Shown here: positions 7,677-19,864 of the stretch, piece after piece
Layout of the letters: every line of letters starts with the position of its first letter
Numbering within the stretch: the first letter of the stretch is position 1
Source of the DNA: a virus
Strand: one strand, 5' to 3'
Virus genome (UHGV): UHGV-0420230
DNA: 42,537 bases
Notes under the pieces: model-generated
Databases searched by the model: none
Told to the model about the DNA's origin: nothing
What the model saw: the letters and a program-made list of their open reading frames with translations, nothing else
Position numbers and translations under genes: made by a program

Positions 7677-7847
7677 ATGTTTGTGAAACCTGTTAAAGGG
7701 CGGTCAGTGCCTGACCCTGCCCGCGGTGACCTTTTGCCCGCCGAAGGGCGAAATGTTGACGAGAACAACTACTGGCTGCGCCGTGAAGCAGCGGGTGATA
7801 TCCGGCGCGTGAATAAAAAGGTGAACACCGATGACGATAATCTTTAA
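7677..7847 (+). CDS. small protein, DUF2635-like (Mu-type tail region)
   Basis: 56-aa ORF not in the supplied track (MFVKPVKGRSVPDPARGDLLPAEGRNVDENNYWLRREAAGDIRRV), overlaps the sheath start by 17 nt; resembles small proteins found before sheath genes in Mu-like phages (from memory). Confidence 0.4.
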   Translation: MFVKPVKGRSVPDPARGDLLPAEGRNVDENNYWLRREAAGDIRRVNKKVNTDDDNL

Positions 7848-9327
7848 CACCATTCCGTCGAATACGCTGGTTCCGCTGTTTTATGCGGAAATGGATAACT
7901 CGGCGGCGAATACTGCACAGGACAGCGGGGCATCGTTGCTGATTGGTCACGCCAATAACGGTGCAGAGATTGTTGCCAACAGTCTGGTGCTGATGCCGTC
8001 GGCAGACTATGCACGCCAGATTTGTGGTGCGGGAAGTCAGCTGGCGCGTATGGTCGAGGCTTATCGCCAGACCGACCCGTTTGGCGAGCTGTATGTGATT
8101 GCCGTTCCGGAAGCCACAGGCGCGGCGGCAACGGTTACGCTGACGGTGACCGGAGCAGCAACCGAAACCGGCACGGTGAATGTGTATGTGGGACGTACCC
8201 GCGTGCAGGCACCGGTGACCAACGGCGATAACGTCACGACGATTGCCAGCAGTATCAAAGATGCCATCAATGCCGTTCCGGCCCTGCCGTTTACGGCCTC
8301 ATCTTCGGCAGGCGTGGTCACACTGACCGCGCGTCATAAGGGGCTTTGCGGGAATGAAATTCCTGTCAGCCTCAATTACTACGGCTTTGGTGGGGGCGAA
8401 GTGCTGCCAGCGGGTGTACAGATTGCCGTGGCGACGGGGACCGCCGGAACGGGCGCTCCGGTTCTCACCGGTGCGGTGGCTGCAATGGCGGATGAGCCGT
8501 TTGATTATATCGGTCTGCCGTTCAACGACACGGCCTCCGTTAACACGCTGGTGACCGAGATGAACGATACCAGCGGTCGCTGGAGCTATGCGCGTCAGCT
8601 GTATGGTCATGTGTATACGGCAAAGATCGGCACGCTGTCAGAACTGGTGACCGCAGGTGACCAGTTTAACCAGCAGCACATCACCCTGGCGGGGTACGAA
8701 AAAGAGACCCAGACGCCTGCCGACGAGCTGGCGGCAAGCCGTACCGCCCGCGCAGCGGTGTTTATCCGCAACGATCCGGCACGTCCCACGCAGACCGGTG
8801 AGCTGGTGGGTATGCTGCCTGCGCCGAAGGGGAAACGGTTCACGATGACCGAGCAGCAGACCCTGCTGTCTCATGGCGTGGCAACGGCGTATGTCGAAAG
8901 CGGGGTGCTGCGCATTCAACGTGATGTCACCACGTACAGGAAAAATGCTTACGGGGTTGCGGATAACAGCTACCTCGACAGCGAGACGCTGCATACCAGT
9001 GCGTATGTACTGCGCAAACTGAAATCCGTCATTACCAGTAAGTACGGGCGTCACAAGCTTGCCTGTGACGGTACCCGCTTTGGTCCCGGTCAGGCGATTG
9101 TCACCCCGGCGGTGATCAAAGGGGAACTGCTGGCAACCTACCGTCAGCTCGAGCGTGCGGGGATCGTGGAAAACTACGAACTGTTCAAGCAGTACCTGGT
9201 TGTGGAGCGTGATGCCAGCGATCCGAACCGCCTGAACACGCTGTTCCCGCCTGACTATGTTAACCAGTTGCGTGTCTTTGCCGTGGTTAACCAGTTCCGT
9301 CTTCAGTATTCAGAGGAGTCTGCATAA
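7831..9327 (+). CDS. contractile tail sheath protein
   Basis: 498 aa, sheath-like, followed directly by a tube protein. Confidence 0.85.
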   Translation: MTIIFNTIPSNTLVPLFYAEMDNSAANTAQDSGASLLIGHANNGAEIVANSLVLMPSADYARQICGAGSQLARMVEAYRQTDPFGELYVIAVPEATGAAATVTLTVTGAATETGTVNVYVGRTRVQAPVTNGDNVTTIASSIKDAINAVPALPFTASSSAGVVTLTARHKGLCGNEIPVSLNYYGFGGGEVLPAGVQIAVATGTAGTGAPVLTGAVAAMADEPFDYIGLPFNDTASVNTLVTEMNDTSGRWSYARQLYGHVYTAKIGTLSELVTAGDQFNQQHITLAGYEKETQTPADELAASRTARAAVFIRNDPARPTQTGELVGMLPAPKGKRFTMTEQQTLLSHGVATAYVESGVLRIQRDVTTYRKNAYGVADNSYLDSETLHTSAYVLRKLKSVITSKYGRHKLACDGTRFGPGQAIVTPAVIKGELLATYRQLERAGIVENYELFKQYLVVERDASDPNRLNTLFPPDYVNQLRVFAVVNQFRLQYSEESA

Positions 9328-9683
9328 TGGCCCGTATCGGGGGAACCTGTTATTTCAAAATTGACGGTCAGCAGCTATCGCTGACCGGCGGCATTGAGGT
9401 GCCCATGAACAGGACGGTCAATGATGACATCATCGGCCTGGACGGTTCAGTGGACCGCAAGGAAACTCACCGTGCGCCTTATGTCAAAGGGACCTTCAAG
9501 GTGCCGAAGAATTTTCCGGTGAGCAAAATCACCTCGTCTGATGAGATGACCATCACTGCCGAGCTGGCGAACGGTCAGGTCTATGTACTGTCGTCTGCCT
9601 GGCTGCACGGCGAAGCGAACCATAATGCCGAAGAAGGCACGGTTGATCTTGAGTTCCACGGTGAAGAAGGGGATTACCAGTGA
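9327..9683 (+). CDS. tail tube protein
   Basis: 118 aa immediately after the sheath; ATG overlaps the sheath stop. Confidence 0.8.
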   Translation: MARIGGTCYFKIDGQQLSLTGGIEVPMNRTVNDDIIGLDGSVDRKETHRAPYVKGTFKVPKNFPVSKITSSDEMTITAELANGQVYVLSSAWLHGEANHNAEEGTVDLEFHGEEGDYQ

Positions 9684-10003
9684 TTGAGCTTGTACTTAAA
9701 AAACCGATCATCGCCCACAAAGAAACACTGCATGTGCTGGAAATACGTGAGCCTACGTATGACGAGATTGAGGCGCTGGGGTTCCCTTTCTCTGTTTCGC
9801 CTGATGGTGGTATGAAAATGGACAGTCAGGTAGCGCTGAAATATATCCCGCTTCTGGCCGGGATCCCGCGCTCGTCTGCAGCGCAGATGACGAAGCTGGA
9901 TATTTTCAAGGCAGGCATGATTGTAATGCGTTTTTTTACCGGCTTGGAGACGGAAGAGACCTCCGGAAGCGATTCTACAATGTCGCGTGGTTCTGGAAAT
10001 TAA
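9680..10003 (+). CDS. tail assembly chaperone
   Basis: 107 aa between tube and tape measure; GTG start. Confidence 0.65.
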   Translation: MIELVLKKPIIAHKETLHVLEIREPTYDEIEALGFPFSVSPDGGMKMDSQVALKYIPLLAGIPRSSAAQMTKLDIFKAGMIVMRFFTGLETEETSGSDSTMSRGSGN

Positions 10004-10095
10004 ACCCCCTTGAACTTCGCCGGACGGCTATTTCCCACTTTGCTGATCTGGAGGCAGAGGCCGTCCGTATAAATGAGGAGATGAAGCATGGCTGA
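9680..10095 (+). CDS. predicted -1 frameshift-extended chaperone (G-T-like fusion product)
   Basis: T7 run 9931-9937 forms a T_TTT_TTT heptamer in the chaperone zero frame; the -1 frame is open from 9805 to TGA 10093-10095, overlapping the tape measure start. Confidence 0.45.
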
Positions 10096-11989
10096 TAATT
10101 TTCAGCTGAAAGCCATCATCACCGCCGTTGACAGGCTATCCGGCCCGCTTAAAGGTATGCAGCGTCAGCTTAAGGGGTTTCAGAAAGAAGTCTCCAGCCT
10201 TGCTCTGGGCGCTGCCGGGGCGGGTACTGCAATAATGGGGGCACTGGCACTCCCTGTAAAATCAGCCATCACCCTTGAATCGAAGATGGCTGATGTCCGC
10301 AAAGTGGTGGACGGTCTGGATACGCCGGATGCGTTTAAGGCCATGACGGAGCAGGTACGCGCTTTGTCTACTGAGCTTCCCATGTCTGCAGACGGGATCG
10401 CGGAAATTGTGGCGGCTGGCGGTCAGGCCGGGATTGCACGTGATGAACTGATGCAGTTTGCCACTGATGCGGTGAAGATGGGCGTGGCCTTTGATACCAC
10501 GGCTGAAGAGTCCGGGCAGATGATGGCCCAGTGGCGTACTGCGTTTAATATGACGCAGGATGAAGTGGCCGGGCTGGCTGACAAAATCAACTACCTTGGT
10601 AATACCGGCCCGGCGAATGCGAAGAAAATCTCCGATATTGTTACGCGTATTGGTCCTTTAGGTGGTGTTGCAGGTGTGGCTTCCGGCGAAATCGCGGCAA
10701 TGGGGGCAACCATTGCCGGGATGGGCGTGGAGTCAGAAATTGCCGCCACAGGGATCAAGAACTTCATGCTTTCCCTGACCGCGGGAAATTCCGCGACAAA
10801 ATCGCAGAAACAGGCATTACGTTTTCTGCGGATCAATCCGAAGAAATTAGCTGCTGATATGCAGAAAGATGCCCGGGGAACCATGCTGTCTGTACTGGAT
10901 GCGATGGCTAAAGTGCCTAAAGAAAAACAGGCAGCTGTGCTGAATGCCCTGTTCGGGAAAGAGTCTCTGGGCGCGATAGCTCCTCTGCTGACTAACCTTG
11001 ATTTGTTGCGTACCAACTTCAGGCGGGTTGCGGATTCCCAGCAGTATGGCAGTTCGATGCAGAAGGAATATGCTTCGAGGGCAGCGACGACGGAAAACCA
11101 GCTTTTACTTCTGCAAAATCAACTTGATGCCATTTCTTCCACTCTGGGGGAAACGTTTCTTCCTGAGGTTAATGATGGTCTTGAAGCGGTAAAACCGCTC
11201 CTTGAGGAAGTGAGAACGTTTGTCCGTGAAAACCCGGAGCTCGTTAAGACCATTGCTAAAATCGGTCTGGCTTTACTGACAGTGGGGGCCGCTGCAGGCT
11301 CTTTGTCCAGAATCATGAAAGTTCTCGGCGGTGTGATGAATATGACGCCTGCTAAGGGGCTGATTGCTCTTCTGGTTGGTGGCGCTTACCTCATTATTGA
11401 TAATTGGGAAACCGTAGGTCCTGTCATAAAAAAAGTCTGGCACGTGGTGGATGAAACGGCGCAGATGATGGGGGGATGGGAAACTGTTCTGAAAGCGATT
11501 GCCCTGTTTATGGCAACCAAATGGGTTGCTGACGTTACCAAATCCATTACCGCAGTGACCAGAGAGATGCGTACGCTGGGGAAGGTATCGGCAGAAACGG
11601 GATTGATGGGGAAAGGCCGCGGCTTTATCGGGAAGGCCGGGGTATATGGTTTTCTGGGAACCCTGATGTATGAGCCGGTTAAAGATACTCTGGAAAGTGT
11701 TGTTCCTGAAGATACGGTTAACTGGCTGGATAATAAAGGGCTGTTTCTGGCTTCAGACTGGACGCCTTTTTTTGATCGTAAAGAGTACGAGCAGTATCAG
11801 GCCAGCCTGAGTCAGTACAAACCCAATGTTCCGCTGTTGAATCCATCTTCTTCCATGACACAGCACAGCGAGCTGAAAGTCACGTTCGAGAATGCTCCGC
11901 CAGGTATGAAGATAATTGATGTACCGGGCAAAGCCGATCCCCTGATGAAAATCACGCACGATGTGGGGTATTCTCCATTCAGACGATAA
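10088..11989 (+). CDS. tail tape measure protein
   Basis: 633 aa, alpha-helical Ala/Gly-rich protein after the chaperone; GAGGAG RBS. Confidence 0.85.
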   Translation: MADNFQLKAIITAVDRLSGPLKGMQRQLKGFQKEVSSLALGAAGAGTAIMGALALPVKSAITLESKMADVRKVVDGLDTPDAFKAMTEQVRALSTELPMSADGIAEIVAAGGQAGIARDELMQFATDAVKMGVAFDTTAEESGQMMAQWRTAFNMTQDEVAGLADKINYLGNTGPANAKKISDIVTRIGPLGGVAGVASGEIAAMGATIAGMGVESEIAATGIKNFMLSLTAGNSATKSQKQALRFLRINPKKLAADMQKDARGTMLSVLDAMAKVPKEKQAAVLNALFGKESLGAIAPLLTNLDLLRTNFRRVADSQQYGSSMQKEYASRAATTENQLLLLQNQLDAISSTLGETFLPEVNDGLEAVKPLLEEVRTFVRENPELVKTIAKIGLALLTVGAAAGSLSRIMKVLGGVMNMTPAKGLIALLVGGAYLIIDNWETVGPVIKKVWHVVDETAQMMGGWETVLKAIALFMATKWVADVTKSITAVTREMRTLGKVSAETGLMGKGRGFIGKAGVYGFLGTLMYEPVKDTLESVVPEDTVNWLDNKGLFLASDWTPFFDRKEYEQYQASLSQYKPNVPLLNPSSSMTQHSELKVTFENAPPGMKIIDVPGKADPLMKITHDVGYSPFRR

Positions 11990-12053
11990 TATAACTACTT
12001 TAATCAAGTAGGGTTATTGAGTGGTAAAGTTTGTGCTGAATGTAGGAGAGAAT

Positions 12054-12542
12054 ATGAAGAAAATGTTTATATTGTTGTTGGCTGTAGGACTGCCATTAAA
12101 CTCCTTTGCGAAGCCAGTAACGGAAAAGCAGCTTGCTACATACTTTATAGATAACGTTAAAACTTCAGCGGATAAGAATATAGATCTAGATGTAGAGGGA
12201 ATAAATAGACTGTCTGTAATATGCCCAGCAAAGTCGGCAAGTGGAACTCTTTTAATAAAAAAAGCATCCTACGAGTTTAATAAAAGCATTGGTGCTTTTG
12301 ATTTTGAAAATAACTCACAATCTGCACCATTGACTTTTATTGTACCAATTAGTGAGGATGAAAATAACTTTGACTCGGAAATTATTGGTTTCTCTTTTGC
12401 ATTTAAAATGCCAAGAGGGCAATTCTTTGTTGATGTTACGAAAACAGGGAAGGTAAAGGCTGGCGTAAATATTAGTGGTGAAAGCGGAATTACTTATTCA
12501 TCATGTAGAATAGATACTCATAATGTTGATTATGATCGTTAA
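12054..12542 (+). CDS. secreted hypothetical protein (moron with Sec-type signal peptide)
   Basis: AGGAG 12044-12048 then ATG 12054; N-terminus MKKMFILLLAVGLPLNSFA-KP is a typical signal peptide; strongly AT-rich versus flanking tail genes; own terminator. Confidence 0.7.
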   Translation: MKKMFILLLAVGLPLNSFAKPVTEKQLATYFIDNVKTSADKNIDLDVEGINRLSVICPAKSASGTLLIKKASYEFNKSIGAFDFENNSQSAPLTFIVPISEDENNFDSEIIGFSFAFKMPRGQFFVDVTKTGKVKAGVNISGESGITYSSCRIDTHNVDYDR

Positions 12543-12556
12543 TTTTATTACCTAAT

Positions 12557-12586
12557 AAAAAACCGCGTTTACACGCGGTTTTTATT
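12557..12586 (+). terminator. rho-independent terminator
   Basis: Hairpin AACCGCG-TTTACA-CGCGGTT at 12561-12580 followed by a T-run. Confidence 0.7.
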
Positions 12587-12598
12587 TGAGGTGACGCC

Positions 12599-13972
12599 AT
12601 GGATTTTTCTCATATTTCTTCGTACCTATCCTCTGATTCTCGAAGTGGCTGGCGTGAAAAGCTACTTGAAGCATCATTTCGAGGTGTGCCGTTTAAGGTT
12701 GAAGAAGAAAGTGCGGGAACCGGTCGCCGTGTGGAAACACATGAATACCCGAACCGCGACAAGCCCTATACCGAAGATCTGGGAAAAGTCACTTTCCGCC
12801 CGTCCATCACAGCTTATGTGGTGGGAGATGACTGCTTTGACCAGCGCGATCGCCTGATTGAAGCGCTGAATAAACCCGGTCCCGGCACGCTTGTCCACCC
12901 GACATATGGTGAGCTGAAAGTCTGTGTTGACGGGGAAGTTCGGGTCAGCACATCGAAAAGTGAAGGGCGTATTGTCCGCTTTGACCTGAAGTTTGTCGAA
13001 GCAGGAGAACTCTCTTACCCCACATCAGGTGCGGCGACGGCGCAGACGCTGATGTCATCCTGTTCTGCACTGGATGACTGCATCAGTGACAGCTTCAGCG
13101 GTTTCAGTATCGATGGTGTGGCGGATTTCGTGCAGAACGACGTTATCGGTAATGCCAGCATAATGCTGGGGTATGTTTCTGATGCGATGAAAGTGGTGGA
13201 TTCTGCCGTATCGGATGCCGCCAGGCTGTTGCAGGGGGATATCTCGGTACTTCTGCAGCCGCCATCGTCAGGCAAAAATTTCGTTGAGCAGGTGCAGAAA
13301 ATGTGGCGTACCGGGAAACGCCTTTATGGTAACGCCAGCGACCTGGTCACCATGATCAAAACGCTTTCCGGTGTCAGCCTCGGCAGCGATCTGCAACCGC
13401 GCGGCGTCTGGAAAACGGACAGTAAAACCACCGCCACGGCGACGCAGCAGCGTAACGTGGTTGCCAGCACCCTTCGTACGACCGCAATCAGCGAAGCGGC
13501 GTATGCCGTCACCCGATTGCCTGCGCCAACAACTTCCGCGGTGATGCAGAATTCCGCAGTGGGGCAGGCAACAACACCTGCGCAGAGCACTGGCTGGCCT
13601 TCCGTCACGCATCCGGCACTGAACAATGCACCGGCGGTGAAAAACACGGTTGACCTGCCGACGTGGGAAGAACTGACTGACATTCGCGACACACTGAATA
13701 CGGCAATTGATAAGGAGTTGTCCCGTACAACCAGTGATGCGCTGTTTCTGGCGCTGCGCCGGGTGAAAGCAGATCTGAATGCGGATATCAACACGCGCCT
13801 TGAACAGTCTGCACGGATCATTCAGCGCACGCCGGATGAGGTTTTACCCGCGCTGGTGCTGGCGGCGACCTGGTTTGATAACGCGGCGCGTGACGCGGAC
13901 ATTATCCGGCGTAATGCCATTACGCATCCCGGCTTTGTGCCGGTGATCCCTCTGAAGGTGCCAGTGCAATGA
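12599..13972 (+). CDS. DNA circulation protein (Mu gp43-like)
   Basis: 457 aa in the conserved position after the tape measure in Mu-type tails. Confidence 0.75.
   Translation: MDFSHISSYLSSDSRSGWREKLLEASFRGVPFKVEEESAGTGRRVETHEYPNRDKPYTEDLGKVTFRPSITAYVVGDDCFDQRDRLIEALNKPGPGTLVHPTYGELKVCVDGEVRVSTSKSEGRIVRFDLKFVEAGELSYPTSGAATAQTLMSSCSALDDCISDSFSGFSIDGVADFVQNDVIGNASIMLGYVSDAMKVVDSAVSDAARLLQGDISVLLQPPSSGKNFVEQVQKMWRTGKRLYGNASDLVTMIKTLSGVSLGSDLQPRGVWKTDSKTTATATQQRNVVASTLRTTAISEAAYAVTRLPAPTTSAVMQNSAVGQATTPAQSTGWPSVTHPALNNAPAVKNTVDLPTWEELTDIRDTLNTAIDKELSRTTSDALFLALRRVKADLNADINTRLEQSARIIQRTPDEVLPALVLAATWFDNAARDADIIRRNAITHPGFVPVIPLKVPVQ
13173..13226. repeat. internal copy of the 54-bp sequence also found at 1-54
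   Basis: Exact identity to window 1-54. Confidence 0.9.
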
Positions 13973-19386: not shown

Positions 19387-19853
19387 TATGCAGCCCTCAC
19401 AATATAATTAAAGGCGATGTTACGTGGACGGTTTTCATTAGCTGTTGGCACGACACGAGAGGCGTCGAATCCAAGGTCATCGGTTTTGTCTATAGTAGTT
19501 GTGCTATTCGGCATTCTCGCTGATCGTGTTCCTGCATCGTAAAAAGCCCCTCTGATTGCATCAAAAGACATACCGATCCCGCCATCTGCGAATCCCTCAA
19601 TATTTCTTATTGCATCCCCCTGTGAAGATAATAATTGTCGCCCGGCATCCACTCCACGTCCGTCATCCCAGCCACGAATAAATTCACCGCGTAAATCAGG
19701 CAATTTATTTGTCGGATAAACCTTTGCCAGTTCCGGGTATTCTTCAGCAGAAAAAGCCGCACCATTGCATTTTAGCCAGCCTGTTGGCGGAGTGGCGGAA
19801 GGCCACGGGACAGGCACACCAACGGGTAATGCCGAACCTTCTCCCAAACCAAC
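19386..19853 (-). CDS. alternative tail fibre C-terminal segment (expressed only after inversion)
   Basis: Tail-collar-like sequence (LKCNGAAFSAEEYPELAKVYPTNKLPDLRGEFIRGWDDGRGVDAGRQ); reading frame runs into the right crossover site; NVGL aligns to NLGL at the left site. Confidence 0.6.
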   Translation of the reverse strand, partial: VGLGEGSALPVGVPVPWPSATPPTGWLKCNGAAFSAEEYPELAKVYPTNKLPDLRGEFIRGWDDGRGVDAGRQLLSSQGDAIRNIEGFADGGIGMSFDAIRGAFYDAGTRSARMPNSTTTIDKTDDLGFDASRVVPTANENRPRNIAFNYIVRAA

Positions 19854-19864
19854 GTTTAAGAAAA
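19839..19864. other. invertase crossover site (gix/pix-like), right
   Basis: TTCTCCCAAACC-AA-CGTTTAAGAAAA, an imperfect palindrome with 8/12 matches to a gix-type half on each side; central dinucleotide AA versus TT at the left site, i.e. inverted. Confidence 0.6.

Follow-up and report, generated by a model that had tools for sequence, protein, structure and literature searches.

The stretch of DNA analysed here, which we call the window, is 42,537 nucleotides long and is an SfIV-like prophage, with 99.3% identity to Shigella phage SfIV over the region of its tail assembly chaperone gene. That region is 99.6-99.7% identical to prophages of many E. coli genomes, and 1082 of 5426 complete E. 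coli genomes, roughly a fifth, have a match to this chaperone region of 1 kb. The genes around it form a block for a contractile tail on the plus strand. The tail sheath gene (7831-9327; PF04984, PF17482 and PF17481), which carries the same annotation in the SfIV and PGAP records, is followed by a tail tube gene (9327-9683; PF10618 Tail_tube, E 2.4e-33) whose TGA stop at 9681-9683 overlaps a GTG at 9680, the start of the next open reading frame. This third frame, 9680-10003, encodes a product of 107 aa (11.7 kDa, pI 5.3) and has the same start and stop in the RefSeq SfIV and PGAP E. coli records. The tape measure protein gene lies downstream at 10088-11989 (PF10145, E 2.2e-42), and a reading of the sequence places its Shine-Dalgarno element, GAGGAG, at 10075-10080, 7 nt 5' of the ATG. 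Mu N-like and Mu P-like baseplate genes also belong to the tail block.

The 107-aa product matches PF10109 (Phage_TAC_7, E 1.2e-7) with 32.1 bits, the gathering cutoff being 25, and it also matches phrog_166, a family labelled ‘tail protein’, with E 1.3e-25. A score above the cutoff, together with the PF10618 tube gene on one side and the PF10145 tape measure gene on the other, supports the assignment of this T7-bearing gene as a tail assembly chaperone, which is what a preliminary description made from the sequence had called it. We refer to its zero-frame product as G. In Shigella phages SfV, SfI and SfII, 96-97% identity to the window persists through the tube gene and is lost a short way into the chaperone gene (see also PMC3851460), so that the chaperone and tape measure genes travel as a mosaic unit. 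Beyond the tape measure gene, at about 12000-12600, there is a 0.6-kb insert of low GC content (34-35%) that encodes a signal-peptide ORF with no family match.

Within the chaperone ORF, a run of seven T residues at 9931-9937 forms the slippery heptamer T_TTT_TTT in X_XXY_YYZ phase. The zero-frame codons here are cgT (9929-9931), TTT (9932-9934), TTT (9935-9937) and acc (9938-9940), read as R-F-F-T, and the two TTT codons would occupy the ribosomal P site and A site, respectively. The −1 frame has its nearest upstream stop at 9802-9804 and is open over 97 codons, from 9805 to the TGA at 10093-10095, with 9805-10003 shared with the zero-frame chaperone ORF. The preliminary description had given the heptamer and its codons, the limits of the open −1 frame and the overlap of that frame with the tape measure start, and these are exact in every coordinate; the overlap with the tape measure ATG (10088-10090) amounts to 8 nt (ATGGCTGA). 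Past the slip, the −1 frame would supply an extension, T, of 52 codons plus the TGA (9937-10095), and the predicted fusion CDS, join(9680..9937,9937..10095), would encode a protein of 138 aa (15.9 kDa, pI 8.9). What looks like an intergenic gap of 84 nt, at 10004-10087, is coding sequence for the C-terminal portion of T, and the GAGGAG of the tape measure gene sits within the final codons of T. The zero-frame tail past the slip, by comparison, consists of 21 residues and is acidic and Ser-rich. The two products should differ at the junction, where the predicted fusion would read ...MIVMRFFYRLGDGR...; Lys-C or chymotrypsin is predicted to release AGMIVMRFFYRLGDGRDLRK from the −1 product versus AGMIVMRFFTGLETEE… from the zero-frame product, and the predicted tryptic junction peptide, FFYR, is very short.

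The slip site is conserved well beyond the close relatives of the window. We compared phiP27 (78% nucleotide identity), ST64B (74%) and a set of relatives with 28-42% protein identity, namely SfV, Pantoea AH07, Yersinia YeP1, Edwardsiella EPP-1, Pseudomonas DVM-2008 and PG1, and Burkholderia BgVeeders33, and added 24 prophages from Mixta, Erwinia, Pantoea, Mangrovibacter, Symbiopectobacterium, Arsenophonus, Serratia and Yersinia. At the homologous codon pair, every one of these relatives has T_TTT_TTT, T_TTT_TTC or T_TTT_TTG in phase, and its −1 extension, 52-63 codons long, stops at the tape measure start or within about 10 nt of it. In-phase T_TTT_TT[T/C/G] occupies the same alignment column in 27 distinct relatives, P2 included, and the phages or prophages that bear the run come from Escherichia, Shigella, Salmonella, Yersinia, Pantoea, Erwinia, Edwardsiella, Pseudomonas and Burkholderia. 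The wobble base before the run is T in 100% of the 27 sequences while the residue encoded there varies (R, N, G, S, P or V), and the first Phe codon is TTT in every one; other third positions nearby reach a majority of only 41-74% in the same set. A search of genome loci seeded with four closer sequences found T7 and the extension in 24 of 28 loci. Some homologous sites have six T residues (TTTTTTC/G in SfV-type, Pseudomonas, Burkholderia and P2 relatives) and keep the X_XXY_YYZ phase exactly, and one relative (L038) has a T8 run. Paraburkholderia phage IPK has GGC TTC TTC at the homologous site and a −1 frame that does not open until 9 nt before the G stop; any recoding site it has is elsewhere than at the homologous position. 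As for the length of the run in the window, it is exactly T7 in 73 of 73 IMG/VR contigs with the window's flanking sequence and recurs in many finished genomes, so a homopolymer sequencing error is ruled out.

The preliminary description had also proposed looking for a downstream stimulatory structure, and here the search came up empty. Eight folds of downstream sequence, covering the window at two lengths and six relatives, were no stabler than shuffled sequences (MFE z −0.35 to +1.29), RNAalifold on 15 aligned homologues gave essentially no consensus structure (−0.55 kcal/mol), and Rfam had no hit in 9600-10300. Nor did the homologue alignment contain a conserved Shine-Dalgarno-like stimulator in the 20 nt before the run. 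A −1 frameshift with an RNA stimulator, of the dnaX or IS911/IS3 type, was accordingly rejected as a model, as no hairpin, pseudoknot or upstream Shine-Dalgarno-like element was found, and the slippery run appears to act without one. Work in E. coli indicates that U_UU.U_UU.U and U_UU.U_UU.C direct more than 0.1% −1 frameshifting without stimulators, and that H_HH.U_UU.Y is among the most efficient heptamer classes when a stimulator is present (PMC4066793). Because no stimulator was found on either side of the run, the efficiency of the site is not predictable; it could be low.

The alternative that fares best against ribosomal frameshifting is transcriptional slippage, in which RNA polymerase would stutter on the A7 template and yield U8 mRNAs that encode the same GT (…RFFYR…). 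The run is a pure homopolymer, T7 here and T8 in L038, and length variants of it (T5) occur at the DNA level in databases. Runs of 9 A or T make bacterial RNA polymerase slip efficiently (PMC5009743), and UUUUUUU is under-represented in all three frames of E. coli genes, for which the authors suggest transcriptional slippage or indels (PMC4066793). However, the RNA:DNA hybrid spans 9-10 bp, and the documented cases of efficient slippage (PMC5009743) involve runs of 9, longer than the 7 found here. Set against the run of about 9 nt or the nascent-RNA hairpin expected of a slippage site, the run is 7 nt here and 6 nt in homologues, with no adjacent structure. The phase kept by the six-T homologues further disfavors polymerase slippage, because a ribosome, unlike a polymerase, is sensitive to codon phase, and the P2 site is annotated as a translational frameshift. 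Thermus dnaX (T9) and Shigella mxiE resemble the window in that a homopolymeric T run opens an alternative frame, but their runs are about 9 nt, versus 7 in the window and 6 in homologues with conserved codon phase. Low-level slippage at U7 may occur, and as the explanation for the extension, transcriptional slippage seems unlikely to us.

Changes in the run or close to it can also fuse the two frames permanently, and a protein search with the fused product recovered natural in-frame G-T fusions. One is a T5 allele (…MRFYR…, 137 aa) present in at least five assemblies, for example GCA_045584985.1; some of the T5 assemblies carry other indels suggestive of long-read errors, and one has the T5 gap only. 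Another, in S. flexneri prophages, has an extra G 33 nt downstream of an intact T7, which joins the zero frame to the T frame, and this allele is very widespread, being found in 754 blocks of the collection. A separate case of altered frame is the record of Salmonella phage 118970_sal3, which has a 1-nt deletion within T. One reading of the T7 run would have it work at several levels, with polymerase slippage adding to GT and changes in DNA run length giving heritable GT-only variants. We consider this improbable; if true, it would mean that the G:GT ratio could be genetically switched or tuned in prophage populations and not fixed.

Whether the extension is coding at all can be judged from how it has diverged. 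Between the window and phiP27, the 240 nt upstream of the run differ at 13, 4 and 34 sites in the first, second and third positions of zero-frame codons. The 159 nt downstream differ at 6, 3 and 23 sites by −1-frame position, with 23 of 32 differences in third positions, and the 93 nt past the zero-frame stop at 2, 1 and 15 (15 of 18 in third positions). Two further sequence pairs have the same frame-switching pattern, and it is precisely at the run that substitutions cease to favor third positions of the zero frame and begin to favor those of the −1 frame. When the fused product was searched by tblastn against 50,697 phage records, 28 of 30 hits covered at least 80% of it, each in two pieces and two frames.

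These comparisons bear directly on the suggestion that the arrangement is accidental, with T7 merely encoding Phe-Phe, the −1 frame open by chance and the 107-aa protein as the sole product. The 107-aa protein is all that public annotations give, and a mechanical scan of every ORF of at least 80 aa in the window recovered 71 in-phase X_XXY_YYZ heptamers, 10 of them with a −1 extension of at least 40 codons past the zero-frame stop, so this combination is not rare among such ORFs. Most of the heptamers with a long −1 extension lie in shadow ORFs of real genes, and because these swell the count, the within-window scan is not discriminating. There are six T runs of at least 7 in the 42.5 kb, and for the window taken alone the case against chance is weak. 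The comparison with relatives is what we judge decisive in removing the doubt: the synonymous positions that create the run are conserved, the substitution pattern switches frame at the run, and the extension protein is conserved across genera in which identity is only 30-40%. Coincidence is thus very unlikely to explain the site.

The idea that the −1 ORF is a small gene with a start of its own draws on a GTG 21 nt upstream of the slip site in an SfV-type relative, on the annotation of a 60-aa ‘hypothetical protein’ CDS in vB_EcoM-689R6 and on the existence of a PHROGs family of such small ORFs (phrog_32181), but it has a negligible chance of being correct, given that the first ATG, GTG or TTG in the window's −1 ORF is at 10081, four codons before its stop, that four relatives have no start codon in it at all, and that the conserved part of the extension starts directly after the slip site. 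Because the −1 ORF has no usable start, only recoding would be able to express the conserved extension, and the evidence supports a protein-coding −1 extension that is probably reached only through recoding.

Taken with the conserved slip site, the frame-switched constraint and the homology to P2 discussed below, the lack of a start supports what the preliminary description had proposed, and the T7 run is very probably the site of a programmed −1 ribosomal frameshift of the phage G/GT type, specifically that of P2 E/E+E'. Under programmed frameshifting, most ribosomes would stop at the zero-frame end of 9680-10003 and release the 107-aa acidic G, while a minority with two tRNA-Phe on the TTT codons at 9932-9934 and 9935-9937 would slip one base back onto T_TT T_TT. 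The slipped ribosomes would read the −1 frame from 9937 to the TGA at 10093-10095 and produce the 138-aa GT, composed of the 86 N-terminal residues of G and a basic, mostly helical T domain of 52 residues. Perhaps a few percent of ribosomes would reach 10095. By analogy with lambda and P2, G and GT may coat the tape measure protein through their shared G domain, with the rarer T domain recruiting the tube protein. The slip efficiency would on the same analogy set a fixed G:GT ratio that governs assembly of the tail tube, and both proteins would be absent from the virion. Because the GT stop overlaps the tape measure start, G, GT and the tape measure protein are likely linked in translation.

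What is known of the two domains from families and structure prediction is consistent with this division. The extension matches phrog_32181, whose function is not known, with E 4.5e-6, and no model in Pfam or NCBIfam covers it; among solved structures there was no PDB match by sequence profile or by fold. An AF2 model of P0001, a naturally occurring allele with G and T fused in frame, drew on 29 sequences and has a confident α/β G domain at residues 1-87 (pLDDT about 80-92, with 68 at residues 41-50). In the model, the slip falls at the end of the last G helix and is followed by a disordered linker at 89-99 and then by three helices, predicted with low confidence, that make up the T part. The best viral match of the model in BFVD is the ‘Tape measure chaperone’ of Burkholderia phage Mica (E 1.8e-4), and the next viral-model matches are to other tail assembly chaperones.

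The mechanism and the family are well known, and the site in the SfIV lineage is itself unannotated in the records we inspected. No frameshift is annotated in the RefSeq and GenBank records of SfIV, or in those of vB_EcoM-720R4, PGAP E. coli, phiP27, ST64B, SfV, AH07, YeP1, EPP-1, DVM-2008, PG1, BgVeeders33 and F1055. The inspected records give only the 107-aa product (or one of about 90 aa), and leave the 84-140 nt before the tape measure gene non-coding or assign them to a stray ‘hypothetical protein’; the 84-nt gap is unannotated in the SfIV, vB_EcoM-720R4 and PGAP E. coli records. In the SfIV genome paper, ORF-12 is listed as hypothetical and there is no mention of frameshifting (PMC3851460). 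Recognizing join(9680..9937,9937..10095) adds a predicted essential tail assembly protein to the proteome and would account for a conserved ‘intergenic’ region. The concept is unchanged, as the mechanism is the one expected from the P2 and lambda types. SfIV, SfV, phiP27 and ST64B-type phages carry serotype-conversion or Stx genes, as their names and the literature indicate. The occurrence of T_TTT_TTT, T_TTT_TTC and T_TTT_TTG at one homologous position also offers a natural series for −1 efficiencies at what would be stimulator-free sites.

Among known systems, Mu has the closest counterparts of the window's flanking tail genes (sheath L, tube M, DNA circulation protein N and baseplate P), and Mup41 (Mu gp41) occupies the same gene position as the window's chaperone and belongs, by name, to the same Pfam family. 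Mu has been reported to shift −2 (PMC2628397, PMC5009743), and its +1/−2 frame is open to just before the tape measure gene, with no T run. A Mu-type −2 frameshift was considered for the window and ruled out, as the window's +1 frame is interrupted by stops at 9918, 9924 and 10011, and it is the −1 frame that is open.

The lambda gpG/gpGT pair is like the window in that a −1 frameshift relates two products that share an N-terminus and whose coding region immediately precedes the tape measure gene; in lambda their ratio is fixed and low, and virions contain neither of them. Lambda differs in its non-contractile tail, its slippery sequence (G_GGA_AAG) and the tRNAs involved (Gly and Lys), and no sequence similarity was detected between lambda G/GT and the window's proteins. 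The G:GT ratio in lambda is about 30:1, and P2-type frameshift efficiency is reported to be 2-3 times higher than that of lambda (PMC5009743). The G/GT frameshift is described as conserved among phages with long tails (Xu, Hendrix & Duda 2004, summarized in PMC3091744, PMC2628397 and PMC5009743).

The closest counterpart of the recoding site is in P2, whose record annotates E (91 aa), E+E' as a joined CDS and a ‘site of −1 translational frameshift’ at TTTTTTG. Frameshifting at T_TTT_TTG in P2 is credited to Christie et al. 2002 and Xu, Hendrix & Duda 2004, as cited in PMC3091744. The P2 frameshift is verified by experiment, whereas the window's site is known from sequence alone. The two proteins share only about 15% sequence identity, and a pairwise BLASTP of the fusion against P2 E+E' was not significant (E 15). 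An hhalign comparison of a profile of 10 fused products with P2 E+E', however, aligned 120 columns across both halves (probability 81%, E 1.2e-5), with the slip sites in one column and the motif A..F.W.P.E…A.R common to both. On the strength of this profile comparison, there is a moderately strong case that the T part is homologous to P2 E'. At the slip column, P2 GTC GGT TTT TTG TCG (…VGFL…) aligns with ATG CGT TTT TTT ACC (…MRFF…) in the window, and both encode (V/A/M)-x-F-(F/L) by NNT TTT TTN.

The P2 heptamer ends in G and the window's ends in T, and because of that final T, both slipping tRNAs in the window would be tRNA-Phe. The zero-frame tail after the slip is 6 residues in P2 versus 21 in the window, and the window's sheath, tube and baseplate genes are Mu-like, not P2-like. 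The tail module of the window is therefore best read as Mu-like, with a chaperone recoding that is P2-like. In both phages the N-terminal part of the protein falls in PF10109 (‘Phage tail assembly chaperone proteins, E, or 41 or 14’), the gene belongs to a contractile tail and has the tube gene on one side and the tape measure gene on the other, the products are of similar size (91 and 142 aa in P2, 107 and 138 aa in the window), and the fusion stop overlaps the tape measure ATG by 8 nt (in P2, E+E' ends at 19857 and T starts at 19850). Because the slip sites, the fusion profile and the 8-nt overlap agree, we take the site in the window to represent the P2 E/E+E' frameshift in the SfIV/phiP27/ST64B lineage, and thereby one more instance of the G/GT frameshift.

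In a Shigella flexneri prophage allele (protein P0007, in the homologous loci L053:1501-1929 and L055:1501-1929), the T7 run of the tail assembly chaperone gene is intact. This allele carries an additional G 33 nt 3' of the run (CCGGAAAC to CCGGGAAAC), and zero-frame translation therefore enters the frame of the downstream extension (T). The 142-aa product is a constitutive fusion of chaperone, linker and T, made by ordinary zero-frame reading. The allele is very widespread, with listings in 754 of the collection's blocks, and prophages that carry it are probably defective. The ratio of the short chaperone to the fusion protein would be inverted in such a context.

Run length itself also varies. 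Prophages near-identical to the window (loci L048-L052, protein P0001; for example GCA_045584985.1 JBIHAX010000001.1) have T5 in place of T7, which joins chaperone and T in frame (…MRFYR…) as a 137-aa protein. Several of these contigs contain further indels, which probably reflect homopolymer errors in long-read assembly. The T-run gap is the single difference between L048 and the window, and it is therefore possible that T5 in this prophage represents a genuine run-length mutant. In Candidatus Sodalis endolongispinus, the run is T8 (G TTT TTT TT; L038:1452-1458 region) because the codon ahead of the run is GTT, and this site retains both the codon phase and the extension.

In other records, the extension is found in a different guise. 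Escherichia phage vB_EcoM-689R6 is annotated with T as a separate 60-aa ‘hypothetical protein’ (L045:537-719) that begins at an internal GTG; this free-standing ORF is an artefact that arose because annotation missed the frameshift, and the PHROGs family for such ORFs is phrog_32181, ‘unknown function’. The record of Salmonella phage 118970_sal3 (KU927493.2, L047:292-690) has 1 nt deleted within T (CTACAACACC to CTACACACC), yielding an aberrant annotated ORF of 132 aa, and this deletion is either a sequencing error or the mark of a defective copy. The homologous chaperone of Paraburkholderia phage IPK (L010:595-1104) encodes its GFF codons as GGC TTC TTC, without a T run, and the -1 frame stays closed up to 9 nt ahead of the zero-frame stop. 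A conserved T-like extension nonetheless follows this chaperone; either the recoding site must differ in IPK, or the record, which is marked UNVERIFIED, must contain errors.

A ~0.6-kb insert with an ORF on the + strand (12021-12542) and a GC content of 34-35%, against about 50%, separates the tape measure gene from the Mu N-like gene. It encodes a 162-173-aa protein with a signal-peptide-like N-terminal segment and no Pfam family, and resembles a moron, the term for an accessory gene that has been inserted into a phage. Upstream, the window at 9327-9717 is 96-97% identical to SfV, SfI and SfII across the tail tube gene and the chaperone's first 30-60 nt, beyond which their chaperone and tape measure share <50% protein identity with those of the window. 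The drop within the chaperone gene marks a mosaic joint, at which the genes for the chaperone and the tape measure move together as a unit. Both versions across this joint retain the slip site, as T7 or T6C.
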